From an uncultured Hyphomicrobiales bacterium (GTDB lineage: Bacteria > Bacteroidota > Ignavibacteria > Kapaibacteriales > UBA2268): a stretch of DNA of 64,000 nt. This document shows positions 46 through 33,069 of this stretch, piece by piece. The position numbers and the translations under genes were made by a program. Each line of letters begins with the position of its first letter. Position 1 is the first letter of the stretch. Where the stretch lies: assembly GCA_964465945.1 (NCBI GenBank), contig CAYXMM010000002.1:319098-383097 (forward strand), read 5' to 3'. The notes beneath the pieces are model-generated. The model saw only the letters and a program-made list of their open reading frames with translations, made no database searches and had not been told where the DNA came from.

Positions 46-525
46 ATGTTAAATAAAGAATTAATCATACAAAAATGTAAAGAAAATCAAGCATATATAA
101 GCGAATTTACAAAGCTTGTAAATTCTAAAACAGACAAAGAATTTTCAGAAGTATTGTTAGATAATTTGGGATGGTTAAATTCCAAAGATTTAATTAAATA
201 CATTGATACGAAAGAGTTATTAAAATATATAGGAAATAATAATAAATGGATTTATAATTATTGTGCATTTATCGAAGATAGACCTGAACTATGGAGTAAG
301 TTAATTAAAGATATATGGATTTATAAATATTGTAGATTTGTAAAAGATAGGAAAGAATTATGGGCTAAATTAACCAGAGATATATGGATTTATAATTATT
401 GTAGATTTGTAAAAGATAGACCTGAACTATGGGCTAATTTAACTAATAGTGAATGGATTTACTATTATTGCAGATACGTAAAAGATAGACCTGAATTAAG
501 AAAAAAATTAAAGGAGTTAAAATGA
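46..525 (+). CDS. Phage helical-repeat protein, paralog 1 (four 23-aa WIYxYCxxVKDRxELW repeats)
   Basis: ORF with AAGGA RBS; N-terminus MLNKELIIQKC shared with 730-1140. Confidence 0.85.
   Translation: MLNKELIIQKCKENQAYISEFTKLVNSKTDKEFSEVLLDNLGWLNSKDLIKYIDTKELLKYIGNNNKWIYNYCAFIEDRPELWSKLIKDIWIYKYCRFVKDRKELWAKLTRDIWIYNYCRFVKDRPELWANLTNSEWIYYYCRYVKDRPELRKKLKELK
247..522 (+). repeat. Four in-frame 69-bp tandem repeats
   Basis: Units start TGGATTTA at 247, 316, 385, 454. Confidence 0.95.
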
Positions 526-740
526 AAGTTAAAAAAATTGATTATCAAAGAGAAATTGATAATCTAGATGTTAACCCGCAGTTTGTATTTACCGAAACGG
601 AGTTATTACCAAAGTTTATTAAAACTTTGGATTTCATTAAGGAAAATTTACAATTAGAAACAGATATAGAGCCATTAAAGTCAGAGTTGAGAGCGTGGGA
701 AAAAGAATTGTATAAATGGGGTGAAAAAAATGTTAAATAA
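522..740 (+). CDS. Phage hypothetical protein (72 aa)
   Basis: ORF with AAGGAG RBS, ATGA overlap with upstream gene. Confidence 0.75.
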   Translation: MKVKKIDYQREIDNLDVNPQFVFTETELLPKFIKTLDFIKENLQLETDIEPLKSELRAWEKELYKWGEKNVK

Positions 741-1140
741 AGAATTAATCATACAAAAATGTAGAGAAAATGGAGCATGTAGAAGTGAATTTAAAAAGCT
801 TGTAAATTCTCAAAATGATAAAGAATTTTCGGAAGTTTTATTAGATAGTTTAGACTGGTTAAAATTCAAAGATTTAATTCGATATATTGATACGAAGGAA
901 TTATTAAAATATATAGGAAATAATAATTATTGGATTTATGAATTTTGCAAATTTGTCAAAGACAAAAAAGAATTATGGTCTAAATTAAATGAAGATTATT
1001 GGATTTATAATTATTGTAAATACGTAAAAGACAGAAAGGAACTATGGAGTAGATTAACTGACCCAGAGTATATAATAAGATATTGTGAGTATGTAGAAGA
1101 TAGACCAGAACTACGTATGAAATTAAAAAAACAAGATTAA
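730..1140 (+). CDS. Phage helical-repeat protein, paralog 2 (three 23-aa repeats)
   Basis: ATG at 730 gives the same first 34 nt as the gene at 46; ORF track start 721 is an upstream GTG. Confidence 0.85.
   Translation: MLNKELIIQKCRENGACRSEFKKLVNSQNDKEFSEVLLDSLDWLKFKDLIRYIDTKELLKYIGNNNYWIYEFCKFVKDKKELWSKLNEDYWIYNYCKYVKDRKELWSRLTDPEYIIRYCEYVEDRPELRMKLKKQD
931..1137 (+). repeat. Three in-frame 69-bp tandem repeats
   Basis: Units at 931, 1000, 1069, homologous to those at 247-522. Confidence 0.9.
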
Positions 1141-1150
1141 AGGGATTAAA

Positions 1151-1507
1151 ATGTTAGAAGAAATTACATTTGAAAAAATCGTAACAAATAAAGAAGAATT
1201 TATTAAAAAAATTGATACATCGAATTGCTTCATACATTCCACAATAACGGAGTATAACACACCCACTAATAAATACTTAGGTGTCTGGACTGATGAGAAT
1301 GGAGATTTTAATATAGTTCAAATAGATTTGAGTAATGATACTTATTCTGATATCATAAAAATGAAAAAAGGTAGTAAGCACGGAAGGCATCATATTTGGG
1401 TCTTGGAAGATTTTTATTCAAATCATAAGCACATTAAAGAAATTAGCAAAGAGTCATTTATGGAAAGGTTGAACAATGCGAAGGAGTTTTTAAATGATTT
1501 CAATTAA
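1151..1507 (+). CDS. Phage hypothetical protein
   Basis: ORF with conserved RBS motif. Confidence 0.75.
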   Translation: MLEEITFEKIVTNKEEFIKKIDTSNCFIHSTITEYNTPTNKYLGVWTDENGDFNIVQIDLSNDTYSDIIKMKKGSKHGRHHIWVLEDFYSNHKHIKEISKESFMERLNNAKEFLNDFN

Positions 1508-1521
1508 ATTAAAGGGAAAAA

Positions 1522-1839
1522 ATGAAAAAGATAAATAAATATTGGGTCGACAAAAATAATAATAAGTGGTCGATTTTTCTTTTCACGGAAGAAGCAGCAG
1601 AGGGGTTTTCAAAAAGTTTAATTAATTGTTATAATTGTTATAATTCTCGTAATTGCTACCAATGTAATTATTGCACCAATTGTAATGATAGCAATCAATT
1701 ATATAATTGTATTAATTGCTATCAATGTAATAATTCTCGTAATTGTAATGATAGCAATCAATTATATAATTGTTATAATTGCCATAAGTGCGAATGGCTT
1801 AATAACAAATCAAATTATTTATTTAATCAAGCATTTTAA
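1522..1839 (+). CDS. Cys/Asn-rich xNC-repeat protein, probable small beta-solenoid
   Basis: 13 Cys with 3-residue periodicity (NCYNCYNSRNCYQC...). Confidence 0.8.
   Translation: MKKINKYWVDKNNNKWSIFLFTEEAAEGFSKSLINCYNCYNSRNCYQCNYCTNCNDSNQLYNCINCYQCNNSRNCNDSNQLYNCYNCHKCEWLNNKSNYLFNQAF
1678..1773 (+). repeat. Exact 33-bp direct repeat in Cys-rich gene
   Basis: AATTGTAATGATAGCAATCAATTATATAATTGT at 1678-1710 and 1741-1773. Confidence 0.95.
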
Positions 1840-1854
1840 AAAAAAGGAGTTAAA

Positions 1855-2400
1855 ATGATATATAAATACGAACATAAAATTAAAATGTATTCATTAGGAG
1901 TTTATGTTGCAAGACAAAATCAATTAAAATATGTTGGTGATGTAAATAATGACGGAATAGGATATATAGAAAAATCTAAAATAGTTGAAACGTTATTAAT
2001 CGGCTCACCATTTCCGCCTGTTATAATATACGAAGAAAAATTTGACACAATTCTAATTAAGAATGGTGAAATAATAAAAGTATTAATTGAGTTTGTAAAT
2101 AATAAATTCAAACTTGAAAATATAAGTTGCAATGACAATTATTATTACTTTGATTTTACGGACGTTGAAAAAAGAAGATTTTTGAATAAAATAATAGTTA
2201 CATACATGCTTAATGATATACCTAACGAAGATGAAATTGAAGATATTGTTGAACGTTATGAACCAACAAAAATTCAAGATGATTATGATTTAATAAATGG
2301 TGATGATTTTAATAGTGCTCCGAAATTTTTAGAATTAATAGCCAATAACAATAAAGAAAAAGTAAAATATAAAATCGAATTTAAAACAACATCAAATTAA
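1855..2400 (+). CDS. Degenerate DUF262 (GmrSD/SspE N-terminal-like) domain protein
   Basis: SKIVETLLIGSPFPPVIIYEE, EFVNNKFKL and EIEDIVER follow the DUF262 pattern; the DGQQR position reads NGEII. Confidence 0.6.
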   Translation: MIYKYEHKIKMYSLGVYVARQNQLKYVGDVNNDGIGYIEKSKIVETLLIGSPFPPVIIYEEKFDTILIKNGEIIKVLIEFVNNKFKLENISCNDNYYYFDFTDVEKRRFLNKIIVTYMLNDIPNEDEIEDIVERYEPTKIQDDYDLINGDDFNSAPKFLELIANNNKEKVKYKIEFKTTSN

Positions 2401-2417
2401 TAAAAAAAGGAGTTAAA

Positions 2418-2501
2418 ATGAAATTAGCAAAGTGCAAAATTTGCACTTACCAAATTAAAAAGGAGTTAAATGAAAAAATTCAAAACAAATTTACATTATA
2501 A
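2418..2501 (+). CDS. 27-aa CxxC peptide or gene remnant (MKLAKCKICTYQIKKELNEKIQNKFTL)
   Basis: AAGGAGTTAAAATG start identical to that of neighbouring genes; below ORF-track cutoff. Confidence 0.4.
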   Translation: MKLAKCKICTYQIKKELNEKIQNKFTL

Positions 2502-2862
2502 TCTTGTAAATTACGATAAATATCAAAGTGAAAATACTAATATAGAAGGTGGATTTATTGCTTTACACAAAAGCATATTAGACCATGAAATTTACGACAA
2601 CAATGATGAAAAATTGATTTTCATTCATTGCTTGCTAAAAGCAGAAGGGAATAGTGAAATTGTGTTTAATGTAGAAAGAGGGCAACTAAAAACTACCATT
2701 GAAAAATTAGTTGAAGAAACAAACATAAAAAGCGAGCAAATCATTACGGCTTTAAATTCTTTGAAAGAAAAAGGAATGATTGAAATTAAAGATTTGGATT
2801 ATAGAAAAATTCAACTAATTACTATTTGCAACTATAACGACTATCAAGATGAAGAATATTAA
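2470..2862 (+). CDS. Phage replication initiator N-terminal HTH-like protein (short)
   Basis: FIALHKSILDH...LIFIHCLLKA...RGQ...ITICNYNDYQ pattern of phage replisome-organiser N-termini. Confidence 0.65.
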   Translation: MKKFKTNLHYNLVNYDKYQSENTNIEGGFIALHKSILDHEIYDNNDEKLIFIHCLLKAEGNSEIVFNVERGQLKTTIEKLVEETNIKSEQIITALNSLKEKGMIEIKDLDYRKIQLITICNYNDYQDEEY

Positions 2863-3250
2863 TAAATTAAAGGAAAATCTTATGAATGAGATAGATAATG
2901 ATATTAACCAATTAGTTAGAGACTTAACACTAGACACACACAAATTAAAGAATTTGACAAATGAATTAGAACTAAGGAAAAAACAATCATTAGAATTAGA
3001 AGAAAGAAAGGCGGAATATAATTATCTAAGTTCAATAACAACATCTATATGCAACAAAATAATCAGAGACATTGAAAACGACGAACAAATGAAAAATCAG
3101 GGGCAAGGGATTGTTATCGTTAATAATTTTCTCGACAAAAATCTTGATGAAATAGAACAAAAGTTGGAACTAATAAATGGCCAACAAACAATTTGCAATA
3201 AAAAAATAAATAAAATAAAAGAACAAATACGAGAAATATTATTATTGTGA
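2849..3250 (+). CDS. Phage coiled-coil hypothetical protein
   Basis: ORF rich in heptad L/E/K/N. Confidence 0.7.
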   Translation: MKNINKLKENLMNEIDNDINQLVRDLTLDTHKLKNLTNELELRKKQSLELEERKAEYNYLSSITTSICNKIIRDIENDEQMKNQGQGIVIVNNFLDKNLDEIEQKLELINGQQTICNKKINKIKEQIREILLL

Positions 3251-3277
3251 TATATTTTAATAAATAAAGGAATTAAA

Positions 3278-3496
3278 ATGAAACAAGATTTATTACTAAA
3301 AATTCAGATACGTAAAATATCAGACAAAAGGGCGCCTCAACTTAGAGAGATGAAAACTATTCTAACCGACGATGAAAATGTAGTTGGAGAAATCGAAGAA
3401 TATTACAAAAATAATTTACCTGAGTATTATTCATATAAAGACCACGATATTGTTTTTACGATTGAAGATAGAGCATTCAATAATTGGGAAATATGA
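3278..3496 (+). CDS. Phage hypothetical protein (72 aa)
   Basis: AAAGGAATTAAAATG RBS motif. Confidence 0.7.
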   Translation: MKQDLLLKIQIRKISDKRAPQLREMKTILTDDENVVGEIEEYYKNNLPEYYSYKDHDIVFTIEDRAFNNWEI

Positions 3497-3698
3497 TGCA
3501 AAAAAACGATTATGGAATATAGAACGGAATAATATCAATAAATATTCTAAAATATTTGGATTAATCAAAGTAAATATAGATTTACTAAAGTTTTACTTCT
3601 TATAATTGTCAGGCAATTTAAAGAAGATATACTTTTAGACAGAAAAAGGGCAAACGTTGTTAATTGTATTTTAATGAAAATTGATAAGGATTATGAAT

Positions 3699-4334
3699 AT
3701 GAATGAAAATTTAGAGTTGTTAATTAAAGATGTATATGCTGGATTAGAATTATTGCCACCCGATTTACAAGGGTGGAATGGTAATGACATCATTTTTGAA
3801 GAATTGATTGTAAAAACAGGACCTAAGTTAATTATTGAAGTTGGAACTTGGAAAGGACAATCGGCTATTAATATGGGTAAATTAATCAAACTTTATAATT
3901 TAGATTGTAAGATTATTTGTATTGATACGTGGCTCGGTTCGTTAGAGTTTATAGACGATACAAGTCAAGAGCGTAATTTACATAAGAGAAATGGTTATCC
4001 AACTATTTATTATCAATTCTTATCTAATGTAGTTCACAATGATTTGCAAGATGTAATAATTCCTTTACCTATAGACAGCCGAAATGCTTTTAGATATTTG
4101 CAAAAGATTAAGATTAAAGCCGATTTGATTTATATAGATGGTTCGCACGAGTATAATGATATTTATGATGATGTAAGTAATTATTATAAATTACTAACGG
4201 ATAAAGGCGTTATTTTTGGAGATGATTATAATAAAGCAGAATGGATTGATGTAGTAACTGCAGTTAATACATATTGTAACCAAAACTACAAAAATTTGGT
4301 AATTAAAGATAGGTTCTGGATAATCAAAAATTGA
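3699..4334 (+). CDS. Class I SAM-dependent methyltransferase (Methyltransf_24-like)
   Basis: IEVGTWKGQS, CIDTW, IYIDGSH, GDDY motifs; ATG 3699 sits 8 nt after AAGGA. Confidence 0.85.
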   Translation: MNENLELLIKDVYAGLELLPPDLQGWNGNDIIFEELIVKTGPKLIIEVGTWKGQSAINMGKLIKLYNLDCKIICIDTWLGSLEFIDDTSQERNLHKRNGYPTIYYQFLSNVVHNDLQDVIIPLPIDSRNAFRYLQKIKIKADLIYIDGSHEYNDIYDDVSNYYKLLTDKGVIFGDDYNKAEWIDVVTAVNTYCNQNYKNLVIKDRFWIIKN

Positions 4335-4793
4335 TTATCTAGTTAAGAAAGAGGCAATGACTTCATATATTTCCTCTAAATCGTCGGGTGATAATACAAT
4401 AAATGGACGTGCAGGTATTGATTTAGTTCCAAATTGATGAAATATAGAATATGGAGCATTGCTAGATATATAAATTTGATTATTTGAATGACCTACTTCT
4501 ATGTTCCTTTTAAGGTTACCTGTTCGGTATAAAATTGGAGTAATACCTAATCTGGAATTTGAGTAACTTTTAATAGTAGAATTACTTAGTTTAGCCCATT
4601 TTTCAGTACCACCTGAAAATAGGTCTATTTTAGAAGCGTTACCGTTCCAAGCACCTTGTAAATCAAAATTACGATTTATAATTTCAGAGATTAGTGCTAC
4701 TACATGAGGAAGCACTAAATTTAACTTAATATCGTCTCTAATTTCAGTAAGAGTTATATTAATTTTTTTAATAATATTATCGGAATTTAGCAT
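4335..4793 (-). CDS. Phage virion morphogenesis protein (Mu gpG-like)
   Basis: PILYRTGNLKRNI, YSIFHQFGT, IPARPF motifs; likely ATG at 4793 (the ORF-track extension to 4910 looks like shadow). Confidence 0.85.
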   Translation of the reverse strand: MLNSDNIIKKINITLTEIRDDIKLNLVLPHVVALISEIINRNFDLQGAWNGNASKIDLFSGGTEKWAKLSNSTIKSYSNSRLGITPILYRTGNLKRNIEVGHSNNQIYISSNAPYSIFHQFGTKSIPARPFIVLSPDDLEEIYEVIASFLTR

Positions 4794-4794
4794 A

Positions 4795-4971
4795 ATGGCA
4801 GAATCTTTAAATAATGAAAAAAAACCTATTTCAATGGGAGAACGTTGGCAAAGCGATATTAAAAGCATTTCCATAATGATAGAAAAGCAAGAAGAAAAAC
4901 CCAAAATCACAAAAGAGATAAGAGAATATTTTAAAAAAGAGTTTGGAGTTACTCTTTTGGATAATAAATGA
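4795..4971 (+). CDS. Unannotated 58-aa antisense ORF, candidate immunity protein of MuF-ART
   Basis: ATG 4795 to TGA 4969-4971, MAESLNNEKKPISMGERWQSDIKSISIMIEKQEEKPKITKEIREYFKKEFGVTLLDNK; A-rich plus strand unlike the T-rich flanks. Confidence 0.6.
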   Translation: MAESLNNEKKPISMGERWQSDIKSISIMIEKQEEKPKITKEIREYFKKEFGVTLLDNK

Positions 4972-6340
4972 GTGTAGCATAAAGAGTTTCAACATCTCTT
5001 TCTACTGGTTTTTTTCCTGTAATTTTAGTCATATCTGTTTTAACTTTTTTTTCTTTTATTAAATTAGTAACGTAAAAGCTTGAATTTGGTCTAAAAAGGA
5101 ACTCTTTTTCAAAATCACTTGCTACTCCTAACTTAGAACCTTTACCTACTTTAATCGTCATAAATATGCTATCCGCCCTATCATTATTAATATTAGCATA
5201 ACTTAATGAAATATCTTTTGAAGATGAGGCACTTAGAAAGGCTTTTTCTATAAATATTCCACTTTCTAAATCTTTTAAGATATTTAAATAGTCGTTAGTA
5301 AAACCTTCTGGGAAAAACATTCCACGATATAATAGTATGCTATGATTTAATTCATAACTTAAATCACCCTCTATGATTGTATTTGTTTTTTTAATATATT
5401 CATCTGTTAGTGATTGGTCGTCATTTGTTCCCCTTAACACTCTATTATATTTATCGTATGCTTCTCCCGCATATTCTTTAATACAATCTTTAACTTCTGG
5501 TTTTAAAGTTTCAAGATAATTAACACTTATATCTTTATATTCTTCATTAGACAATTCTTTAAATAAAATTTTGCTAAACATATTAATTAAATCCTCTTTA
5601 ACTTTATCTGGATACTGGCTTAAATCAGGTTTAAAATCTTCGGTAATTTTAAGTCCGTCTTTTTTGGTTTGATTTAATTGCTTCTTAAAAACATCGTCAT
5701 TACTTAAACGCTTTAAAAAATCATTTCCATTCTCAATTTTGATGCCCTCGTTATCTACTTCTTTTTGACTTAATGAACGGACAGAGCATTTGCAACCAAA
5801 TCGAGAGGGTGGATAGAATGTAGACCAGAAAGGATCATCATAAGGCAATACTTTGCCATAAAATTGTCTATGAAAATCGTTTTTTTCAGCCGATGTAGAG
5901 GCAATGTATTTCAAGTAAGGTCTAATACCAGATTTGCCTAATCTTTGTTGATGCTCATATTGTCCTTTTGCATAAGCAATATTCAAATTAGTTTCATAAA
6001 CAACTTTCAACCGATTTTCAGTTAATTTAGTTAATTTCCTTAATTCTTCGGTATCTTCTAAAAATTCGGTTAATGTTTGCCCTTTCTTTTTTGCTTCTTC
6101 AAGTTTATCATAAATTGCTTTAAGCATATCAGCCGAATGAATACCAGCCACCGTGAATGCTTGGTTGTGTGCTTTGGTGCTCATCTCTTGCCAATTAACC
6201 GTAGTTTTAAGATTTTTACCTTTATTTCGTAAATATTCAAGTTGTTTTTCGGGCTTCATTGTTAAGAGTTCTTTCATTATTTTATCTTTATCGAACTCAC
6301 TAAAAGCCAGGTTCAACATTTTTTTACTAAATATCCGCAT
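4949..6340 (-). CDS. MuF (gpF/SPP1 gp7-like) head protein fused to C-terminal VIP2-like ADP-ribosyltransferase
   Basis: N-terminal VYETN...AYAKG, YPPSRFGCKCSV; C-terminal YxxYNRVLRG, LYRG, FLSASS, FEKE (R-S-E). Probable ATG 6340 after GGGGGT. Confidence 0.9.
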   Translation of the reverse strand: MRIFSKKMLNLAFSEFDKDKIMKELLTMKPEKQLEYLRNKGKNLKTTVNWQEMSTKAHNQAFTVAGIHSADMLKAIYDKLEEAKKKGQTLTEFLEDTEELRKLTKLTENRLKVVYETNLNIAYAKGQYEHQQRLGKSGIRPYLKYIASTSAEKNDFHRQFYGKVLPYDDPFWSTFYPPSRFGCKCSVRSLSQKEVDNEGIKIENGNDFLKRLSNDDVFKKQLNQTKKDGLKITEDFKPDLSQYPDKVKEDLINMFSKILFKELSNEEYKDISVNYLETLKPEVKDCIKEYAGEAYDKYNRVLRGTNDDQSLTDEYIKKTNTIIEGDLSYELNHSILLYRGMFFPEGFTNDYLNILKDLESGIFIEKAFLSASSSKDISLSYANINNDRADSIFMTIKVGKGSKLGVASDFEKEFLFRPNSSFYVTNLIKEKKVKTDMTKITGKKPVERDVETLYATLIYYPKE

Positions 6341-7715
6341 TAAATACACCCCCTGCTTGTGAAGCCATTATTGCTGTTTTAAATAATTCTTCGATTTCAG
6401 AACTATCTAAATTTGAGTATCTATTTTCAATTAACTCTCTTGCTTCTTCGATAGTATTAGATTGTGTTATTAACTTAACTGCATAGTTCAACATTTTTTC
6501 ATTTGCTTTAAGTAATGCTTCCATTCCTGTATCGTCTATATGGTCGTGTTCTTCGTCCCCTTCAGTAAATTGAGGTGATGCTGGTGCGGATATTTCAAAT
6601 TCGTCTTCGGCTATACCATAATTTTTTTGAATGTAATTTTTATTAAATTTAATACCTACTTGTGTGGCTAATAGTCCATCTCTTTCAGCTAATATCTTAT
6701 CGACATCTTCTTGTTGATATAATCTAAAACGTGGAATATTAGATATAGTGCCGTAATTTATAGTGTATATTTTCTTAATTAATTCATTAAAAGCGGCTTC
6801 AACCATTTTTTTATCTGATTCAACTACGTCCGACCTTACTTGTAGATGTGTTTGGGACATTGCATAAGAACCGACATCACCTTGCTCCGTTGTTAATGTT
6901 TGTGATAAGATTACTTTCGATAGTTCAGAGTTCCAGAGGTGAATGAAGTCTTTAAATATCATTGGCGAGCTTGCTTTTGTTAAGTCAAGAAAAGTTACAT
7001 CGTCATCAGAATTAGTGACAACTACACCATCATGTCTGGCTTTATCTAAAGTCAATAGTAAATCTTCTGTACTTTTTTCAATAGTGGAGTTGGTTTTACC
7101 ATATAAAAACGGCATGCCATATTTTTCAATATAAGTAAGCCAAAATTTCGTTACATCTTTTTTAAATTTAACTGCCCAAAAACATTTAGAAAGCAATGCT
7201 TCACCGTAAGGATTAGTATAGGTTGCATTATGTTGAAGCAACAAAAATTTATTATTATTACAATAGACTTTTTCATTTTTAGCATTTACAAAATAACCTA
7301 AGTTATTAGAATTAAAAACGAACCAATCACATGGTTTGCCTATTATATCGACAGGTACATAAAAGCCATTGGTTAGTCGCCAATATATTTCAAGATATTT
7401 AAACCCATAAAGAGGGGCTTCCAGCATCTCTGATATTATTCGGTTTATATTAAGATTATTAAATATATTTTTAATAAATTCGTTCTCTCGACTCTCATCG
7501 TCATATAATATCTCCCATTCTAGCGAAAGTACACCAGATTTACGTGATTGAATTATACTCGATAAATGTGGGTCAGTTCTTAAATCATCGTAAGAACTAA
7601 TTCTATTACCTATTTGTCTTAATATTTTGTCTGGATTTGGCAGTTCATTATTAACAAAAGTTTTAAGCCAAGAATGCGATGTATCTCTTACAATTACATC
7701 TAATAAATTATTCAT
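6327..7715 (-). CDS. Portal protein (DUF935 / Mu gp29-like)
   Basis: NPYGEALL, IEKYGMP, ILSQTLTT, GSYAMSQTH motifs. Confidence 0.92.
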   Translation of the reverse strand: MNNLLDVIVRDTSHSWLKTFVNNELPNPDKILRQIGNRISSYDDLRTDPHLSSIIQSRKSGVLSLEWEILYDDESRENEFIKNIFNNLNINRIISEMLEAPLYGFKYLEIYWRLTNGFYVPVDIIGKPCDWFVFNSNNLGYFVNAKNEKVYCNNNKFLLLQHNATYTNPYGEALLSKCFWAVKFKKDVTKFWLTYIEKYGMPFLYGKTNSTIEKSTEDLLLTLDKARHDGVVVTNSDDDVTFLDLTKASSPMIFKDFIHLWNSELSKVILSQTLTTEQGDVGSYAMSQTHLQVRSDVVESDKKMVEAAFNELIKKIYTINYGTISNIPRFRLYQQEDVDKILAERDGLLATQVGIKFNKNYIQKNYGIAEDEFEISAPASPQFTEGDEEHDHIDDTGMEALLKANEKMLNYAVKLITQSNTIEEARELIENRYSNLDSSEIEELFKTAIMASQAGGVFNADI

Positions 7716-7723
7716 ATTTATCC

Positions 7724-9088
7724 CTAATAATTTTTATAATTATCAATTACATTATTAATTTTTCTTTCAAGATTAATTCTAGTTGGTTTATACATTTTAG
7801 ATAATACTTGGAATGCCATAGTCGTAGTATCAACAATATCGTCGTGTTTTCCAGCTGGGAATTGATTATGTTCGTTTAAGAAATCGTCTAAAAATGATTT
7901 ATTCTTGGGTAAGAACACACGACCTGCTTCAATATATGGAGTTGTTGTATGTGCTCTAACCACTTTATCCATTGGAGCAATACCTCTTACGTTTAATTTA
8001 CTCTCACGTCGGAGTATCTGTATTAATGATTTACCACTTCCAGCGTCTTCAATATAGATTACATTTGGTTTATGTTTATCATACTGGTTTTCAGAGGCAA
8101 CTTTTAACTCTGGAAATTGTAATTTGTCTCTAAATAAATCAATTAAATAAAAATTGTCATCATTCCAACCCCAGGTAGCACAAACAGAGTAATCATTTTC
8201 TTTTCCTTTTTCAAAAGCAGTGTCCCAGACTTGTATAACATTGTCAAATTTAATTTCACCTTCATTATAGTATTTCCACCAGTATTTTTGAAATATTTGA
8301 TGCTCATTGTCAACAGGTTGCTGTTGATACATTGCAGAAAAAAAGTAAGAACCGACGGACTTCTTTATTTTTTCAAGTTCAGTAATATTATAACGCTCTG
8401 GGAAAAGGGCTTCACCAACTTTACGATTTAAAACATCGTCATTAGTTGCAATAGCAGGGAAATCGACGACATGCCAGTCGGCAGAAGTTTCACTTGCTAA
8501 TATACGACCTACTAAATCGTCATGATGCCAGCGAGTCATTACTATAATCATAGAGCCGTTAGGTTCTAACCTATTAAATGCAGTAGATTGATACCACCTG
8601 TATACTTTATCTCGATAAACATTACTAAATGCTTCGTCGCTATTTTTTACTGGGTCATCTATTATAAATAAATTTGCACCTTTTCCTGTGATAGAACCTC
8701 CAACACCGACAGCAGTTAAACTACCTTTTCTGTTTTTTATAGTCCAATGGTTATTTCTATCTATACCAACTTCAAGATTTTTCAAATACGAATAATCTTT
8801 AAAGTGTAATTTAGACTTCATAGCCCATTGTTCCGCTAACTCTAATGAATATGAACTTATTATTATCTGGTCATTTGGGCGATTTAAAAGCCACCAAAAA
8901 GGCAAGTATTCTGAAATCAAATGAGATTTTCCGTGTCTTGGTGGCATTGAGACTATCAACCTTTTAATCTCACCGCTATATACTTTTAACAATTTATCTT
9001 CGAGTAATAATAAATGCTCCGCTGGAATATATTCATTATTAGTTCCTTTACTATCCAACATCGCACAATATATTGGAGTGTTTATCAT
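7724..9088 (-). CDS. Terminase large subunit
   Basis: MPPRHGKS Walker A, IIDDP Walker B, WDTA, IED, HDDIVD nuclease motifs. Confidence 0.95.
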   Translation of the reverse strand: MINTPIYCAMLDSKGTNNEYIPAEHLLLLEDKLLKVYSGEIKRLIVSMPPRHGKSHLISEYLPFWWLLNRPNDQIIISSYSLELAEQWAMKSKLHFKDYSYLKNLEVGIDRNNHWTIKNRKGSLTAVGVGGSITGKGANLFIIDDPVKNSDEAFSNVYRDKVYRWYQSTAFNRLEPNGSMIIVMTRWHHDDLVGRILASETSADWHVVDFPAIATNDDVLNRKVGEALFPERYNITELEKIKKSVGSYFFSAMYQQQPVDNEHQIFQKYWWKYYNEGEIKFDNVIQVWDTAFEKGKENDYSVCATWGWNDDNFYLIDLFRDKLQFPELKVASENQYDKHKPNVIYIEDAGSGKSLIQILRRESKLNVRGIAPMDKVVRAHTTTPYIEAGRVFLPKNKSFLDDFLNEHNQFPAGKHDDIVDTTTMAFQVLSKMYKPTRINLERKINNVIDNYKNY

Positions 9089-9534: not shown

Positions 9535-10965
9535 TTAAAATTCAGGGATTAACGTTTCAGTATCTAAATTTTCCAAATATGATAAATCTAAAACTGGGAA
9601 GTGTTCAGCTATTTTAGTAGTATCTCCTTTGTAAAAGACCAGTACGTTTTGGTGATGTTTGCCTGCTTTCCTTGATTTACTAAATTGACTACCTACTCTA
9701 ATTGGAAGACTTGCAAGGTGATTAACTAAAATCATTTCATTATATAATGACAAACCTGCCTTCTCAAAGCATTCAATAGTATATGAAACAAAGTTCTTAT
9801 AACTACCATTTTTATTTCTAACATCAGCAACAACGAAAACAGCAAATCTATTTTCATTCAACACCCCGCAGGATTTGTTAATAATATCAAAATAAGTCTT
9901 TTTAAATTCATCGTAAGGCATATTTGACAAATCGGCAGGGTCATCTGAATAAACTTCTAAATCCGCATAAGGAGGGCAGGAGAATAACAAATCAAACTTT
10001 TCGCCTTTAAAAATTTCATCTATGTTTTTACTATCTCCATAAGTCCAAGTTGGTCTTAAATTCTTATTCTTGATAACATCATTAACTTTACTAACTTCTT
10101 CATAATTTTTGATATTTGCCTCTACTTGTTCCTTTCTTAAATCATTACCATAATATTTAAACCCTAATTTAGAAGCAACTATACCTCTCACAGAACCACC
10201 TGCAAAAGGATCTAGTATCTTTCCATTCTGGGTGTTAAACCATAAATAAGATAACTCACATAATACTGGGTCAAAAATCGAAGTTGAGCCATTTTCACCA
10301 CCTAATAGTTTTATCCCTCTTTTCCCTGCCTCTTTAAACACTGAATCTGTATCAGCAGGCAATCCTTTTGCTTTCATCTCATTTTTTAAATCGTAATATC
10401 TTGGTGATTGAGCGGATTTGCCAAATGTCAATCCGCCTTCTCTTCCTAACTCACTTTTAATTCCTAAGTCTAACCACCAGTTCTTTCTTTGTTGCCATTG
10501 TCCTAATTTGGTGTCTAACACTGAAAATGGTGGTATTAAAAACCTGTCAATTAACTTTTTAGGTCTAGCATTAATAAAAGCATCGTCTTCAACTATAAAT
10601 TCTTTTTCTAACTCCAGTCCCCACTCATCTAACAATGTATTATCCCATTCATTTGCGAGTATATCCGTGTCCCATTCTCCATACCCAAGATTATCTTTGA
10701 TTATAAACTCTTTTTTTTGTTCTTCCGTTAAATCATCGGCTTTAATAACATACACTTTCTTATGCCCCGCTTTTTCACAAGATTTCAATCTCATATTACC
10801 ACCAAGTACCATAAAGTTGTTATCAACAACAATAGGTCGTAATTTTAACATCTCTGGGAAATCTTGAATAGATTTAACAAGTTTATCAAATCTATAATCT
10901 TTTATTATTCTTGGATTGTTAGGGTTTGGTTTGACTTGACTAATATCAATTAATTGAATATTCAT
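9535..10965 (-). CDS. ParB-like N-terminal domain fused to DNA amino-methyltransferase
   Basis: KPNPNNPR...PIVVD...GGNMR; ILDPFAGGS motif I followed by SCPPY motif IV. Confidence 0.88.
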   Translation of the reverse strand: MNIQLIDISQVKPNPNNPRIIKDYRFDKLVKSIQDFPEMLKLRPIVVDNNFMVLGGNMRLKSCEKAGHKKVYVIKADDLTEEQKKEFIIKDNLGYGEWDTDILANEWDNTLLDEWGLELEKEFIVEDDAFINARPKKLIDRFLIPPFSVLDTKLGQWQQRKNWWLDLGIKSELGREGGLTFGKSAQSPRYYDLKNEMKAKGLPADTDSVFKEAGKRGIKLLGGENGSTSIFDPVLCELSYLWFNTQNGKILDPFAGGSVRGIVASKLGFKYYGNDLRKEQVEANIKNYEEVSKVNDVIKNKNLRPTWTYGDSKNIDEIFKGEKFDLLFSCPPYADLEVYSDDPADLSNMPYDEFKKTYFDIINKSCGVLNENRFAVFVVADVRNKNGSYKNFVSYTIECFEKAGLSLYNEMILVNHLASLPIRVGSQFSKSRKAGKHHQNVLVFYKGDTTKIAEHFPVLDLSYLENLDTETLIPEF

Positions 10966-14713: not shown

Positions 14714-14783
14714 GCGGGAATGTTCTAATGTAAGAAGCGTTACTGCCAGTAACGAGATGGGAGTTCAAGTCTTTCTTTCCGCT
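14714..14783 (+). tRNA. Phage tRNA-Gly(GCC)
   Basis: Acceptor GCGGGAA/TTTCCGC, D stem TTCT/AGAA, anticodon stem CGTTA/TAACG with loop CTGCCAG, T loop TTCAAGT, U discriminator; no CCA. Confidence 0.8.
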
Positions 14784-14785
14784 CT

Positions 14786-19118: not shown

Positions 19119-19555
19119 AATTAGCATTTTATAAATATGAATTTGGAAACTGGAAAGATTGGTTAATTGCTAAATTAACTAATTCAAAATATAGTCATAT
19201 TGAGTTAATATTTGATAGTGGGTCTAGTTTAAGTTCAAGCCCACGCGATGGTGGTGTTAGATTCAAGAAAATTGAATATAAACCTGAACGTTGGGACTTT
19301 TTGAATATAGACAGCGAAATAGACAGAGAAAGAGATGAGTATTTAGACCGTGCATTTGACTTGATTAACCATAGGCATCGATACGACTGGCTTTCAATCT
19401 TCTTAGGGTGGGCTGGTATTAAGTCATACAATAGATTTAATTGCGTTAATGCTTGTATGTATGTTATAGATGCAGATTTTAAGTATTACACTCCGCAAGG
19501 AGTTTATGAAAAATTACAGCGGGGTGGAGCAGTAGGTAGCTCGCTGGTTTCATAA
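19115..19555 (+). CDS. Permuted papain-like (NlpC/P60) amidase-family phage protein
   Basis: YSHIEL precedes RYDW...FNC (His before Cys); last 38 nt overlap the tRNA. Confidence 0.7.
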   Translation: MKLAFYKYEFGNWKDWLIAKLTNSKYSHIELIFDSGSSLSSSPRDGGVRFKKIEYKPERWDFLNIDSEIDRERDEYLDRAFDLINHRHRYDWLSIFLGWAGIKSYNRFNCVNACMYVIDADFKYYTPQGVYEKLQRGGAVGSSLVS

Positions 19556-19590
19556 GCCAGAGGTCGCAGGTTCAAATCCTGCTTCCGCAA
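19518..19590 (+). tRNA. Phage initiator-type tRNA-fMet(CAU)
   Basis: AGCGGGGTGGAGCAG...TTCATAA...GGTTCAAATCCTGCTTCCGCAA; 1:72 mismatch and A11-U24 pair typical of initiators. Confidence 0.88.
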
Positions 19591-19613
19591 CTAAAAAAAG
19601 AGAGAGCAGTATT

Positions 19614-26425: not shown

Positions 26426-26568
26426 ACAGATTATTATCTAATGTTCGTAGTAAAATATGGTATATGGATGTTTTAGCGAATGGTGATGTTACTAAATATA
26501 AAGAGATTCGCCAGTGTTATTTAGTAGATGTTTTTGATGTTATAATTAATAAAGTTAAGAGAATATAA
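26233..26568 (+). other. Programmed -1 frameshift (T TTT TTG at 26251-26257) and gpGT-like extension
   Basis: -1 frame open from the slip site to TAA 26566-26568, overlapping the TMP ATG; no ATG in that frame until 26464; AGGAG 10 nt upstream of the heptamer. Confidence 0.8.
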
Positions 26569-29500
26569 TGGATAAAAGTTTTAAGTTTTTATTAGATTTT
26601 ATTGTAGATATAAAATCGGACCCGAGCAAAATAAAATCCACCTCAAAGCAAATTTCTGAAATGTTAGGAGAATTTGCTATTGATGTTAATTTTGATAAAA
26701 AAGACGTTGAAAAAGAAATAACTACTTTCTTAAAGCAATTATCTAAATTAGATACTAATAAATTAAAATTGCAGATAGAAACGGGCGAGGCATCAAAGGA
26801 ATTGAAAGATTTATTTGGGAGTTTTGACGGATTAGGTGATTTTGAAGATGCTTTTAAAAATATTGATTACTCAGAATTAAATAATTTAAAATCTAAAATA
26901 GATGATTTATTTAGCGATTTTGATAGTGATAAAATTAGTGAAGGATTGAATGAACTTGGAAATGAATTTAATAAATTCAAAAGTAAAGTTGAAGGTCAGG
27001 AGATTAATATTGGGATTGATAAAAATGAATTTCTCAAAAGCGTTAATACTATTACAAATGAATTAGATGAAATTGAGAAAAATAAGATTGAAGTAGATTT
27101 TGACGCAGGGAAAGCAAAAGAGCAATTTAAAGAATTATCGAATGTTTTAAGTAATTCAGGTGTTGAAGGATTTCAGGAAGCAATAGATAATATTGATTTT
27201 TCTGAAATAGAGAAGATGGCAAAATCAATGAATTTAGATTTTGATGTTGATGGCATTAAAAAATTAGCAAAAGAAATTGACAATGTTGGTAACAATACTA
27301 CAGGGTTTAAAACGATTGATGATTTAATCGAAAATTTAGAACAAAATGTAAATTCAACCGATTTTAGTAAGTTTAAGAATGGTATTGGTGACATTGATGA
27401 TGCGGTAAAAAAAGCCAAGAATGAATTAAATGATATGATTTCTAAAAATAAGAACGTTTTAAGTGTTCTTGAAGCAACTGGCAAAAGCGGAAGTGAAGCA
27501 TATAACAAAATCGAAGCAGAAATTAAAGAAGCAGAAGCAGCGCTTGGTAAATTAGGAGCAAAACAAGATGACTTTCAAAAAAGCACTAAATCAATTGGCG
27601 ATAAAATGGCTACGTTTGGTATGGCTTATCAAGGTATTTCAGCAATATCAGATACTTTCAGTCAATTCATAGAACCATACAAAGAATTTGACGTTCAGAT
27701 TAGGAATATTGGAACGTTAGGGATTAAGAATTTTGAAGAATTTAGAAGTAAAGCAATCGAATTATCAACTGAAATTCCTGAAAGCGTAGCAGGTATTACA
27801 GCCGCTATTTATGACGGGATTGGAGCAGGTGCTATTAGTGTTACAGATGATATGGCTGATGTTGATGATGCAATCCAAGCTGTAACTGCAGCTAATAAAT
27901 TAGCAGTTGCGGGTGTAACAACAACAAGCGCTGCAATGCAAGGTTTATCGGCTGTAACAAATGCTTACGGAAGAGATACGCTTTCAATGGCGAAAGCAAG
28001 TGATACAATGTTTGGTATAGTAAATTATGGAGTTGCTTCGGTTGAAGAGTTAAACGCTTCATTATCGAATGTTGTTCCTATTGCAGGCGCCGCAGGTGTT
28101 ACATTTGACCAAGTAGGTGGTGCTATTGCAACGATGACAAAACAAGGGACACCAGCAGCGCAAGCAACTACTAAAATAAGGTCAGCAATAGCTGAAATAA
28201 TGAAACCAGGTGCTAATCTTAAAAAGGTTATGGACGAAGCAGGAGTTTCGATGGAAAGTTTAAAATCCGAAGGGCTTCAAGCGACATTCAAGAAGCTTGG
28301 AGAGACGATGACTAAAATGGGGACTGATTCAGCTAATACATTTTCTTCCATTGAAACTATAAGCTTTGCTCTTGCTGTTACAGGGGATAATGCTTCAAAA
28401 GCACAAGCCGATTTAGAGGATGTTCAAAATGCTACAGGTTCAGTAGATAAAGCGTTTAAGATTGCTGGTGCTGGTGTGAAAGGGACCGCAGAAGCTATTA
28501 TGAATGATATTCAAGCAACTGCATTTAAGGTGTTTGGGACTATTGGAGATGGTACAGTTGCATTTTTAGACACTACAAATAAACTTGCACCTGCTATTGC
28601 TTCATTTGCGGGACTGAGTACAATAGTCCCTGATGGGTTTGGTGCTAAATTAAAAGGATTTAGTTCAACGATTAGTACTGAATTAGGATTAGCATCTAAT
28701 AAGGTTAATGAATTTACTAAAAATTTCAAATTATCAAATATTGAATTTAGTAAATTAGGTTCAATAGATACGTATAAAAAAGGAATTAGCAGTATTGGTG
28801 GTAGTGTTGGAGGATTGGGTAGTAAATTAAAATCAGTTGCTCCAATGCTAACTAATCCTTATTTACTCGGTGCAGCTGCAATCACTTTATATTTAACTCA
28901 AACGGAACAAGGCAATAAAATATTAGATAAACTTGGAGAAAGTGCGAAAGCATTATTTGAGAAGTTCAAACCATTTGTAGAGTTAATAGTTAATGTCTTT
29001 GGTGTCGTGATTGAGAATTTAAGCGGTTATATTATGGGTATGGTTGATGCTATTGGTGTATTGATTAGTTCTGTTATTGATGTTTATGGTGCATTTTTCG
29101 AAATGACTGGTATCTCAGACATATTGAGTTCAATATTTGGTGATTCGATAAGTTCAACCGAGGAATTTTCTGAACAATTAGATAGTATTTTAAAATATAT
29201 AATGTTAGTACCAGCATCAATTAAAATATTAGCATTAGCTTTTAAAGGGTTCTTTACTAATTTACCAGCAATAGCAATAGCATTTTTTGATTTAATGAAG
29301 GAAGTTATTAACCCAGTAAATTGGTTTGATGATGGAGATGCTATATCAAAAGCAAAAGATAAATTTGCTAATGTAGTTAGCAATGCAATGGACGAAGCAA
29401 CTAATGAGGTAATTAAAACAGCAAAAGACCTTGCAATAGACGATTTTATTAGATTTAAAGAAAAAGATACTAGGATTAAAGCATTAGATAATTTAGTTAG

Positions 29501-32500
29501 TCAATTTGAGGATACGAAAGATGAGGTTGCAAAAAATAATATTGCTATGGAAATTGCAAAAGATATGCCTGAGGCAGTAAAAGGATATAAAATGGTAGCC
29601 GATGCTAATGGTAATTTAATTAAAGTATTAGATATTAATATTGACAAAGTCAAGGAATTAAATAAAGCGAGGGGAAGTTCAAATTCTGCGGATATGGTTG
29701 AGAAAGAAAAACAAATTGCTAATGCTATTTTATTACAAGCAAAGTCTTACGATAAAGTAAAACAACAAAGTAAAGATTTGTCTAAGCAAATCATAGAAGC
29801 ACAAAAGAAAGGAGATACTGGATTAGTCAATTCACTTAAAAAAGATTATGATAAGGTTCAAGAACAAATCATTACAAAATCGAAAGATTTAAAAACTCAA
29901 TTAGATAAGGCAACTGAAATGGGAATAACGATGAAAGATGTTAAAATCCCACCTAATTTTGAAAATGATTTCACAAATGAATTGCTTAAACTTCAAGATA
30001 TTGCAGACGAGAAGGAAATTGGTAAAAAAATTACTGAAAGTATACAACTTAAAGAAAGTATTGATAAAAACGGAGAACTTAATAAACTTGTAGAAGATTA
30101 CAAGAAGGCAGGCAATGATTTCGAAAAAGAAAGTATTGCAAAGAAAATAGCAAAAACTGCCCCTGAATTAGTTCAAGCTACTGGCTCAATGGTAGCAAGT
30201 AACGGGCAGTTAGTCAAAACTTACGAAGTAGCAACCAATAAAGTTAATGAATATGTTGCGAGCAAGAAAAAATCATTGAGTAGCGAATTAACTAATAAAC
30301 AAAATGAAGTTTTGAATGGTATTAAAAATGAAGGTAAAGAATACGAAGCCCTTAAATCCAAAATTCAACTTAAAAATAAAGAGATTAGTGAAGCAATAGC
30401 AAAAGGTCAGGATACAAGTGAATTAGAGAAACAATTTAATACTTTAACTCAAAAAGCAGAGCAAAGTAAAAACTCTATTGTTAGTAGCATGGGTAAGGCA
30501 AAAGAAGGAGGTATTGATGTAACTAAAGTTTATGGTGATGTATCTAAAAGTATTGGAGTGAGTAAGGACGAAGTAGCTAAAATGACCGACGCACAAAATA
30601 AGTCAAAAGACTTAACTAAGGAGCAAAAAACTGAAACAGAGGATTTAGCTGCGGCTTGGAGTAATGTAAAATCTCAATTAGATGATACAATCAATAAGCA
30701 GGTTTCTACTTTATCCGAAATGAGGAGACAAAGAGCGGAAGGTAAGTTAACTAAGGAACAAAAAGCAGAAAGTTTAGCAAAAGAAAAAGAAATTTTATCT
30801 ACACTAAAAGATAATGCAAAGGAGCAAAAAAATCTCGAAAAGATTAATGAGAATGTATTAATTCAGGCAGGACTTAAAGAAGTATCTGGGAAAAGCGCTT
30901 GGGAACTTGCAAAAGCAGAATACGATTTAAAGAAATCTAAAACAGAATTAGAATATGCTGATTTTGAAATATCACAAACTCAATTAGTTATGCAAGGTAA
31001 AATTAAAGATGAAGATGTGGCACAATTAAATCTGTTGAATGAAAAAAATAAAACTGCGAAGATTAATAAAGATAATTTACTTGAAGTATTAAAGACGAAA
31101 AGATTGATTACAGGGGTCGACGATAAAGGCGAGGTAGTGTTTAATTCTAAAATTAAAGATGTAGATAAAGTTGATATTCAGAAGTTAATAAATGATGTGA
31201 ATAAAGAAATTATTTCTAATGAAAAGTCTGTTAAAGATATTCAAGTTAAGGTTAATAAAGATAGTGAACAAATAAATAAAGAGATTACTGAATTAAATAA
31301 ACAAAGGATAGACTGGCAAATAAGTTTAAATGTTCCTAAGTCTGATATATTAGAACGAGAAGTAGATAGAATAAAAAGTAGTTTAGACATTGCATCAAAA
31401 GAAGCACTAAATTACAGCAATCAAATCAAAGTTATTGAAACTAAAATTTTAAATGAAAAAAATGAAACTACTAAGGTTGAATTACAAAAAGAATTAAATA
31501 TTATTAAAGGTAAATATTTAGAAAAAGCAAAATTAGAGTTTGATACTAATAAACAATTATTAGAAGCGACTAATAATTTTTACGAAGAAAAAGCAAGAAT
31601 TGCTTCCGAACAAATTCAAAAAGCAAAGGACGGCGTTAATAATGAATTTGATATAGCAATATCTGAGTTGGAGAAATATAATACGAAACTTAATGAGTTA
31701 AATTCGAATAAAGAGAATGAAGAAGCTGATAATAAACTAAGTAAGATTGATAAAAATCAAGAAAAAGAATTGAAGAAATTAGAAGATTGGCAAGGGATGC
31801 AGTTACTATCTACTTCTGAATTTGAAAAGAAAAAAACTCAAATCGAAAAAGAAGCAGAAGAAGAGAGGGCTAAAATAAGGGAAGGACTACGAAAGAATGA
31901 AGAACTAAGACAAAATGTTTATGATGGCGAGCAACTCCAACTTCAAAATCAGAAAGCAATATTATTAGCTGAAATCGACAAAAAAGGAGCCGACGAGCAA
32001 TTAAACATAGTAGCAGAAAAATATAAATCAATGGGAAAAGTAATAGATTTTGATACTATAAAAAAGGCTCAACTAGAAATTATTGAAGCAGAAAAAAAAT
32101 TAGAACAAAATAAATATGATACAAAAGCACAACTACAAAAAGAGAATGCTGATAAGATAATAAAAGAAAATATAAAATTATTAGATGAAGGTAGTAGAAA
32201 ATCAGTATTGGAATCTTCTAAATTATGGGCTTCAGCTCAAAAAACAACAGAAGAAAAAGCTGATTTATTAAAAACTTCAATGGATATGTTTAATGGGTCT
32301 ATGCTGAAAGGAATAGAAGGAATGTTTGAGGGCGACCCAGAAGCTATGAAAGATAATATGCGGTCTTTTATGCAAAACATTGCTGGTTTTTTAAAGAAAC
32401 AATTAGAAGCAACAATCTTGCAATTAGTATTATCAAAAGGAGTTCTGGCACAGGTGAATTTATTACCATTTCCAGCAAATACTTTAGCCCTGGGAGCAAT

Positions 32501-32953: not shown

Positions 32954-32995
32954 CTTCTAACCTATTGGATTAGAATAATCTATAATTTAGTCTTG

Positions 32996-33069
32996 TGGGC
33001 CTGGAGGGACTTGAACCCCCGACAAACGGATTATGAGTCCGCTGCTCTAACCGACTGAGCTACAAGCCC
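32996..33069 (-). tRNA. Host tRNA with CAU anticodon, probably tRNA-Ile2; prophage attachment site
   Basis: GGGCTTGTAGCTCAGTCGGTTAGAGCAGCGGACTCATAATCCGT...GGTTCAAGTCCCTCCAGGCCCA; TAATTTTG promoter-like element at 33107-33114. Confidence 0.92.

Follow-up and report, generated by a model that had tools for sequence, protein, structure and literature searches.

A conserved small gene encoded against the late operon beside a MuF-ART gene of a Mu-like-head prophage: a candidate immunity gene

The window, by which we mean the whole stretch of 64,000 nucleotides that was analysed, is AT-rich (G+C about 28%), and the locus described here belongs to a temperate phage with a Mu-like head, present as a prophage in an FCB-group bacterium. 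Phage genes extend to about 32.9 kb and end at a tRNA-Met gene, after which bacterial genes for a PBP, a T9SS-sorted protein and peptidases follow. The genomes closest to this PBP are Kapaibacteriales/Ignavibacteriota MAGs, at 69-70% identity, so that the host resembles members of that group. The structural genes form two divergent operons, split at 10965/11099. The minus-strand operon leads from a ParB-MTase gene through a 143-aa ORF, the large terminase and the portal gene to a MuF-ART fusion gene and then to gpG, the final gene of this packaging and head operon. The plus-strand operon opens with DUF6582 (558 aa), followed by the capsid genes and then the tail genes. As a result of this division gpG lies apart from the remaining head and tail genes, and a plus-strand block of small genes converges on it. 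The genes and domains that matter for what follows are these:

46-4334, plus strand: block of small genes converging on gpG
3681-4334, plus strand: second methyltransferase gene (Methyltransf_24), which ends the converging block beside gpG
4335-4793, minus strand: gpG-like virion morphogenesis/tail completion gene, 152 aa (PF05069; phrog_26)
4795-4971, plus strand: small ORF of 58 aa, ATG at 4795 and TGA at 4969-4971, candidate for an ART immunity protein
4949-6349, minus strand: MuF-ART fusion gene, 466 aa from GTG 6349 (PF04233, 3.8e-13; PF03496, 1.7e-7)
about 4952-5521, minus strand: ART domain (PF03496 ADPrib_exo_Tox, aa 277-433)
5093-5335, minus strand: ART catalytic R / S-x-S / E-x-E motifs, all intact
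5093-5113, minus strand: E-x-E motif, FEKEFLF
5219-5239, minus strand: S-x-S motif, FLSASSS
5321-5335, minus strand: R motif, LLYRG
about 5780-6118, minus strand: MuF domain (PF04233), aa 78-190
6327-7715, minus strand: Portal_Mu, directly upstream of MuF-ART
7724-9088, minus strand: TerL (large terminase), upstream of the portal gene
9535-10965, minus strand: fusion of ParB-N with an N6/N4 DNA methyltransferase, 476 aa, which heads the packaging operon
26568-32840, plus strand: tape-measure-like protein (PhageMin_Tail), 2090 aa, last large phage gene before tRNA-Met
32995-33069: tRNA-Met at the apparent phage/host boundary, a possible integration site

Two further tRNA genes, Gly-GCC and Met-CAT (14714-14784 and 19518-19591), lie within the phage structural region. 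In close relatives gene callers give the MuF-ART protein 463 aa. Besides the two Pfam domains it matches phrog_220 (minor head protein) and phrog_802 (Alt-like ART, 1.3e-6), and the sole PDB sequence match of its ART domain is a weak one to the arginine-specific ART Vis (4xzj, E = 0.002). The R, S-x-S and E-x-E motifs are kept in the homologues L007, L009, L010 and L013.

The preliminary description of this DNA held that the apparent gap between MuF-ART and gpG is filled by a plus-strand ORF running from ATG 4795 to TGA 4971, and these coordinates, together with the overlap of 23 nt with the toxin gene, are confirmed. The junctions of the ORF with its two neighbours are compact:

4782-4785, plus strand: weak Shine-Dalgarno-like GGAA, 9 nt 5' of the ATG of the small ORF
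4791-4797: back-to-back start codons CAT-A-ATG, with the gpG ATG at 4793-4791 (minus strand), the ORF ATG at 4795-4797 (plus strand) and one base between them
4949-4971: convergent overlap of the 3' ends of the small ORF and MuF-ART, 23 nt

Since the start codons stand back-to-back, the translation-initiation region of each gene lies inside the coding sequence of the other, and the GGAA at 4782-4785 reads as Ser-Asp codons of gpG on the opposite strand. The same slot reads GGAG or AGGA in L001, L002/3/6, L010 and L014, and in most members of the small-ORF family GGAG, GGAA or AGGA stands 9 nt 5' of the ATG; AAAGGAG is often used by the phage genes of the window. The earlier statement that the ORF lacks a clear ribosome-binding site is softened by this motif, weak as it is in the window itself. 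On the other strand gpG has no Shine-Dalgarno motif, and the 155-nt untranslated spacer that lies 5' of it (4794-4948 in the minus-strand view) is antisense to the small ORF. A scan found no terminator between the ORF and the upstream plus-strand block, and sigma-70-like promoter matches occur at chance level (6 against 6.9 expected) in a scan that used no promoter model for the FCB group.

In base composition the ORF has 47% A and 24% T, and the AT skew, which is +0.17 to +0.27 over 4701-5000, is mostly negative on either side, in agreement with the preliminary account of an A-rich plus strand between T-rich flanks. That account also called the peptide soluble-looking; it is indeed hydrophilic (GRAVY -0.96) and contains no hydrophobic segment. 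Two other frames in this interval were considered and rejected. A minus-strand frame opening at GTG 4910, which would extend gpG at its N-terminus, contains stops in other lineages and would encode a hydrophobic antisense product, and both gene callers and homologues place the start of gpG at the conserved ATG, identically in the gene calls of L002-L006. A 54-aa minus-strand ORF (4831-4995) is likewise interrupted by stops in other lineages and is regarded as an antisense artefact.

Spurious ORFs of 40-70 aa are numerous in the window, so that the length of the ORF is by itself within chance, and its standing as a gene is better judged from its relatives. Gene callers predict the identical 58-aa protein on five metagenome contigs, all of which share this gene order. 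In four other phage lineages (L007/8, L009, L010 and L013), whose MuF-ART is only 42-49% identical to that of the window, the slot likewise contains a counter-oriented homologue, of 56-72 aa, so the ORF is conserved beside homologous ARTs, the absence of which the preliminary description had named as grounds for abandoning its proposal. The homologues measure 71 aa in L007/L008, 64 aa in L009 and 56 aa in L010, that of L013 being cut by the contig end; they are 33-47% identical to the window protein and share the motifs P-x-S-x-x-E-R-x-x-x-D and T-x-E-x-x-x-x-x-K-x-E-F-G. An exhaustive census with HMMER on 1.8 billion representatives and a profile word search gives about 14 clusters of 56-77 aa. 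The layout CAT-N-ATG of the start codons recurs in L007, L009 and L010, making four lineages with the window, and the 3'-end overlap with MuF-ART varies from 32 nt in L007 to 23 nt in L010 and the L014 remnant and 4 nt in L009 and L013. Substitutions between the window and L001 fall 11:5:10 by codon position, a count to be read with the knowledge that the plus frame and the minus frame in gpG phase share third positions; because the third positions of both frames coincide, gene status was judged by frame openness and dN/dS instead. The frame of the small ORF is the sole one without internal stops in 8/8 loci, and its dN/dS of 0.18-0.43 resembles that of neighbouring genes, with 0.27-0.34 for MuF, 0.34-0.41 for gpG and 0.28 for the portal. 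In sum, these comparisons indicate that the small ORF is a genuine conserved protein-coding gene, which bears out the earlier claim that the gap holds a counter-oriented gene. An open frame that arose by chance in an A-rich stretch between genes and was wrongly called as a gene would be in keeping with the many spurious ORFs and with the two partly open antisense frames of the window, but it is effectively refuted by a frame that stays open in 8/8 loci while all others gain stops, by motifs kept at 33-47% identity, by a dN/dS below 0.45 and by the decayed L001 remnant, which keeps the ORF at 85% identity against 43-67% in its flanks.

The encoded protein belongs to an apparently new family without described relatives. 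It has no match in Pfam, PHROGs, the PDB sequence profile search or Rfam. The AlphaFold2 model built from the family alignment is a two-helix hairpin (helices at aa 14-31 and 40-50, mean pLDDT 76) for which Foldseek returned no significant neighbour, and neither Pfam, PDB-sequence nor Foldseek comparison gave an above-chance match to a type II antitoxin, to RHH or HTH proteins or to another DNA-binding family or fold. The predicted pI ranges from 4.5 to 8.9 across the family, and net charge is not conserved. Searches for the locus itself were similarly unproductive: among phage records, blastn with the interval 4300-6400 found nothing and tblastn with the peptide (50,697 records) returned only noise, a conserved 23-mer was not found in GTDB genomes or IMG/VR, and single-protein locus searches with MuF-ART found nothing in these two collections.

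Several lines of evidence link the small gene to the ART. Six-frame translations of all fetched loci were scanned with two HMMs, one for the small protein and one for the ART domain. With MuF-ART set against toxin-less MuF, as the preliminary description had suggested, the small ORF is found in 5/5 lineages that carry the ART and in 0/4 MuF-gpG junctions that do not (L035, L034, L038 and L039/L051), a small sample in which the five lineages with both genes form one clade. In L035, from IMG/VR, the portal is 41% identical to that of the window, and a MuF protein of 254 aa without ART is followed by a 108-nt gap before gpG; in L034, L038 and L039/L051 gpG comes directly after MuF. L035 was the one useful locus from a portal-alignment scan of IMG/VR, and the same scan of metagenomes found no relative. 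The small ORF and the ART are both absent from distant gpG loci obtained in gpG-alignment scans (0/36), which serve as a negative control only. Among these loci the family is limited to those with an ART or a C-terminal ART remnant, plus one stand-alone chromosomal set, and the ART remnants beside the small ORF retain the last roughly 40-50 codons. A distant MuF-ART in L011/12, 25-26% identical to that of the window, is followed by an unrelated, co-oriented ORF (L011:7386-7634, plus strand) whose 82-aa, very acidic product is a candidate for a conventional immunity protein; gpG lies 2.6 kb beyond it.

The divergence of the ORF also tracks that of the ART. Over pairwise comparisons among five lineages the two identities correlate with r = 0.96 (Mantel 1/120), and the partial correlation is 0.94 given either the portal or MuF-N, for a set of five taxa that amounts to effectively three ART/ORF types. 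ORF divergence does not follow gpG, though gpG is equally adjacent. Between the window and L007, gpG is 65% and MuF-N 61% identical while the ART is 38% and the ORF 40%; between L007 and L009 the corresponding values are 58%, 59%, 56% and 64%. At a finer scale the ORF and the ART domain share a single block:

4791-5623, no strand: low-divergence block of 833 nt, ORF plus ART domain, with 0-1 differences between window/L005 and L002/L003/L004/L006

This block is flanked by a patch in gpG (4300/4500-4790) with 31-48 differences and by a patch in the middle of MuF (5624-5846) with about 50. Within these patches, in gpG and in the MuF domain and linker, divergence reaches 7-20%; the haplotypes are otherwise roughly 99% identical. 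The divergent patches are mosaic tracts left by recombination, and their limits coincide exactly with the two edges of the ORF+ART unit. Co-occurrence, co-divergence and the linkage block all agree, as circumstantial evidence from five taxa of one clade and from two haplotypes. Together with the chromosomal copies described below, they uphold the earlier proposal that the ORF is linked to the ART.

Members of the family are also found in bacterial chromosomes where the phage has decayed or is absent. In L001 the ORF is intact (74% aa and 85% nt identity) and adjoins a bacterial aminotransferase gene, while gpG is frameshifted and internally deleted (64-67% nt identity) and the MuF tail contains stop codons and a deletion (43-50%). 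In L014-17 and L036-37 a 59-aa member, 45% identical to the window protein, lies in a 477-bp remnant between genes for a cation-efflux protein and a ClC channel:

L036:1018-1588: 477-bp remnant with its flanking repeats
L014:1050-1613: the equivalent interval

The remnant contains gpG codons 8-63, the intact small ORF and the last 46 ART codons, with the E-x-E motif included in L014. On either side of it stands a 47-nt copy of the 3' end of the cation-efflux gene, the two copies being direct repeats with 89% identity. These repeats look like an attL/attR scar, as would be left by near-complete deletion of a site-specifically integrated phage. An orphan of the L014 type was found in the same sample as a phage contig identical to the window (SRR32005135; the phage is also contained in run SRR27197495), and the host of the window probably carries both a prophage copy and the 45%-identical orphan. 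A third setting is provided by L030-33, in which a 64-aa member, 60% identical to that of L009, is surrounded by housekeeping genes, a SecB-like gene on one side and EF-G on the other, and has no phage or ART remnant beside it. In L030 (7346-8527) the family member stands 197 nt downstream of the SecB-like gene, and a bidirectional terminator hairpin at 8496-8527, common to it and EF-G, follows the small ORF. That the small ORF is kept while its surroundings decay argues that the gene benefits the cell without the phage, and the pattern of retention resembles, by analogy, the behaviour of orphan immunity genes. The orphan of the L030 type could serve a function unrelated to ART, as a toxin remnant is missing there.

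On balance, the comparisons tip towards the small ORF encoding the cognate immunity protein of the ART domain of MuF-ART. The catalytic motifs of the ART are intact, so there is presumably an activity to neutralise. A precedent is provided by the Bacteroides prophage MuF-ART Bxa, a lethal protein that is neutralised through binding of the small protein Bsi, which modelling and mutagenesis place at the Bxa active site; an ADP-ribosylhydrolase (BAH) also reverses the modification made by Bxa (PMC11699363). Following this precedent we take the ORF product to be an immunity protein of the binding type: a small, cytoplasmic, non-enzymatic helical hairpin that would probably bind and block the C-terminal arginine-type ART. 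Encoded on the strand opposite to the late packaging and head operon, the gene would not be co-transcribed with the toxin. Its transcript would come instead from a promoter of its own within the 5' region of gpG, or from read-through out of the plus-strand block that converges on it. In that case cells would already be immune when the late operon starts to make MuF-ART, and uninduced lysogens would be immune too; lysogens, like bacteria in which an orphan copy is all that is left, would have protection against ART delivered in the virions of related phages.

Several points count against the immunity reading. Immunity genes of polymorphic toxins are normally co-oriented with the toxin gene. ARTs that phages inject, T4 Alt among them, are not known to require immunity, and the ART here also matches an Alt-like PHROG. 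The five lineages with ART and ORF are one clade, and their co-occurrence could be shared ancestry; co-divergence could reflect physical linkage within one recombination tract. No above-chance promoter was found, a length of 56-72 aa is smaller than that of most immunity proteins, and net charge is not conserved across the range of pI from 4.5 to 8.9.

A broader reading, which we put forward tentatively and regard as improbable in its full form, is that the system serves kin discrimination. The small proteins would be ART-type-specific immunity proteins independent of the late operon, such that lysogens of the same type and cells with an orphan remnant of roughly 0.5 kb, probably including the host of the window, survive injected MuF-ART, and antisense pairing would add a switch between immunity and virion production. 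If this were true, bacteria would be taking individual immunity genes from phages and using them as a minimal defence against phages or toxins.

Among the alternatives in which the gene has another task, a lysogenic-conversion moron is unlikely but fares best. Here the gene would help the host or block superinfecting phages, for example by interfering with the assembly or DNA entry of an incoming phage, and its proximity to the ART would be historical. A gene running counter to the late operon around it is typical of morons, intact orphans persist under purifying selection in three unrelated chromosomal contexts, and the L030-33 copy lacks an ART remnant, all of which this explanation would accommodate. 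It leaves unexplained, however, why ORF divergence follows the ART and neither gpG nor the portal, why the ORF is absent from relatives without ART, and why recombination patches leave the ORF+ART block between them undisturbed.

Less likely still is a chaperone or packaging adaptor for the ART, which would hold that domain in an inactive or unfolded state until it is loaded into the procapsid and then be stripped off or co-packaged. Such a role overlaps with immunity, the primary function being assembly, and would suit both the tight linkage and co-divergence with the ART and the location of MuF proteins, which lie inside the capsid and are believed to be injected (PMC5576092). A factor with this task would be expected, however, to be co-transcribed with the late operon and not antisense to it, and chromosomal orphans without a phage make no sense for such a factor.

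We give similarly little credence to a regulator of the late operon, in which the protein (possibly a ribbon-helix-helix-like dimer) or the mRNA would control gpG translation or the stability of MuF-ART mRNA. The conservation of CAT-N-ATG start codons in four lineages and a gpG gene without Shine-Dalgarno sequence after a long untranslated spacer are compatible with it, and any plus-strand transcript would be antisense to the late mRNA over the 3' end of MuF, the entire spacer of 155 nt and the initiation region of gpG. Against it, the peptide itself is under selection (dN/dS 0.18-0.43, motifs kept at 33-47% identity), no RHH, HTH or DNA-binding family matches it, Rfam has no match in the region, and orphans without a late operon are still conserved. 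Because the constraint on the small ORF acts at the protein level, an antisense effect alone is an insufficient explanation, although a regulatory effect of this kind may coexist with a protein function.

To our knowledge MuF-toxin fusions are widespread in temperate phages, and immunity has been characterised for two toxin types only, Apk2 and Bxa. If the small ORF is an immunity protein, it represents a new and very small family directed at an ART that is delivered by virions, in a phylum that has been little studied (Ignavibacteriota/Kapabacteria), and it would mean that immunity to a phage toxin can be encoded against the late operon, as it is in pore-forming colicins. Surveys restricted to co-oriented downstream ORFs would miss genes placed in this way. 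With its repeated lone survival in chromosomes the gene offers a concrete example on which orphan immunity to toxins injected by phages can be tested, and it bears on the purpose of MuF toxins, which may lie in kin selection among lysogens or in host takeover.

The closest comparison is with MuF toxin-immunity modules, of which Bxa-Bsi from a B. stercoris prophage is an example. Here, as there, the portal gene adjoins a gene whose product has a MuF domain at its N-terminus and, at its C-terminus, an arginine-type ART in which the R/S/ExE motifs are intact; directly after the toxin domain comes a small ORF without assignment to a known family, and the prophage is that of an FCB-group bacterium. 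The small gene of the present locus differs in being inverted, with a tail-to-tail overlap with the toxin gene and a start-to-start junction with the next head gene. Its products of 56-72 aa are shorter than Bsi, which has at least 92 residues, and the locus has no partner resembling the ADP-ribosylhydrolase BAH of the Bxa locus. The presence of a small ORF only alongside a toxin domain is in line with MuF modules more generally, since in the survey of Jamet et al. (2017) a small ORF follows 89% of MuF toxin genes versus 25% of short MuF genes (PMC5576092). The R-S-E type ART delivered with DNA also recalls Alt of phage T4, as reflected in the phrog_802 match, with the difference that the ART here is fused to MuF, is carried by a temperate phage and has a small co-evolving partner gene. 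Alt itself comes from a virulent phage, stands alone as a protein and is not known to have an immunity partner.

In its layout the locus is closest to the operons of pore-forming colicins. The immunity genes of ionophoric colicins lie on the opposite strand under their own promoter (PMC9517006), and the candidate immunity gene described here is likewise found 3' of an inducible toxin gene, just downstream of it on the other strand and not co-transcribed with it. This layout permits immunity in uninduced cells against toxin that arrives from outside. The likeness is architectural only, without sequence relationship: colicin immunity proteins are integral to the membrane and their toxins are secreted pore-formers, whereas the ORF product is hydrophilic and predicted to be cytoplasmic (GRAVY -0.96) and the toxin is an enzyme packaged in the virion. 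The chromosomal copies can be compared with the orphan immunity genes of polymorphic toxin systems (CDI, Rhs and T6SS) mentioned in PMC11699363, in that an intact gene is kept without a functional toxin, in some cases with a C-terminal toxin fragment (L014, L001). They differ from these in being single remnants of decayed prophages at scattered sites and not arrays downstream of an active toxin gene. In sum, MuF-ART toxins and adjacent small genes for binding-type immunity proteins are already known from Bxa and Bsi; what the present locus adds is an apparently new family, its conserved inverted placement, tail-to-tail with the toxin gene and head-to-head with gpG, and its scattered chromosomal orphans.
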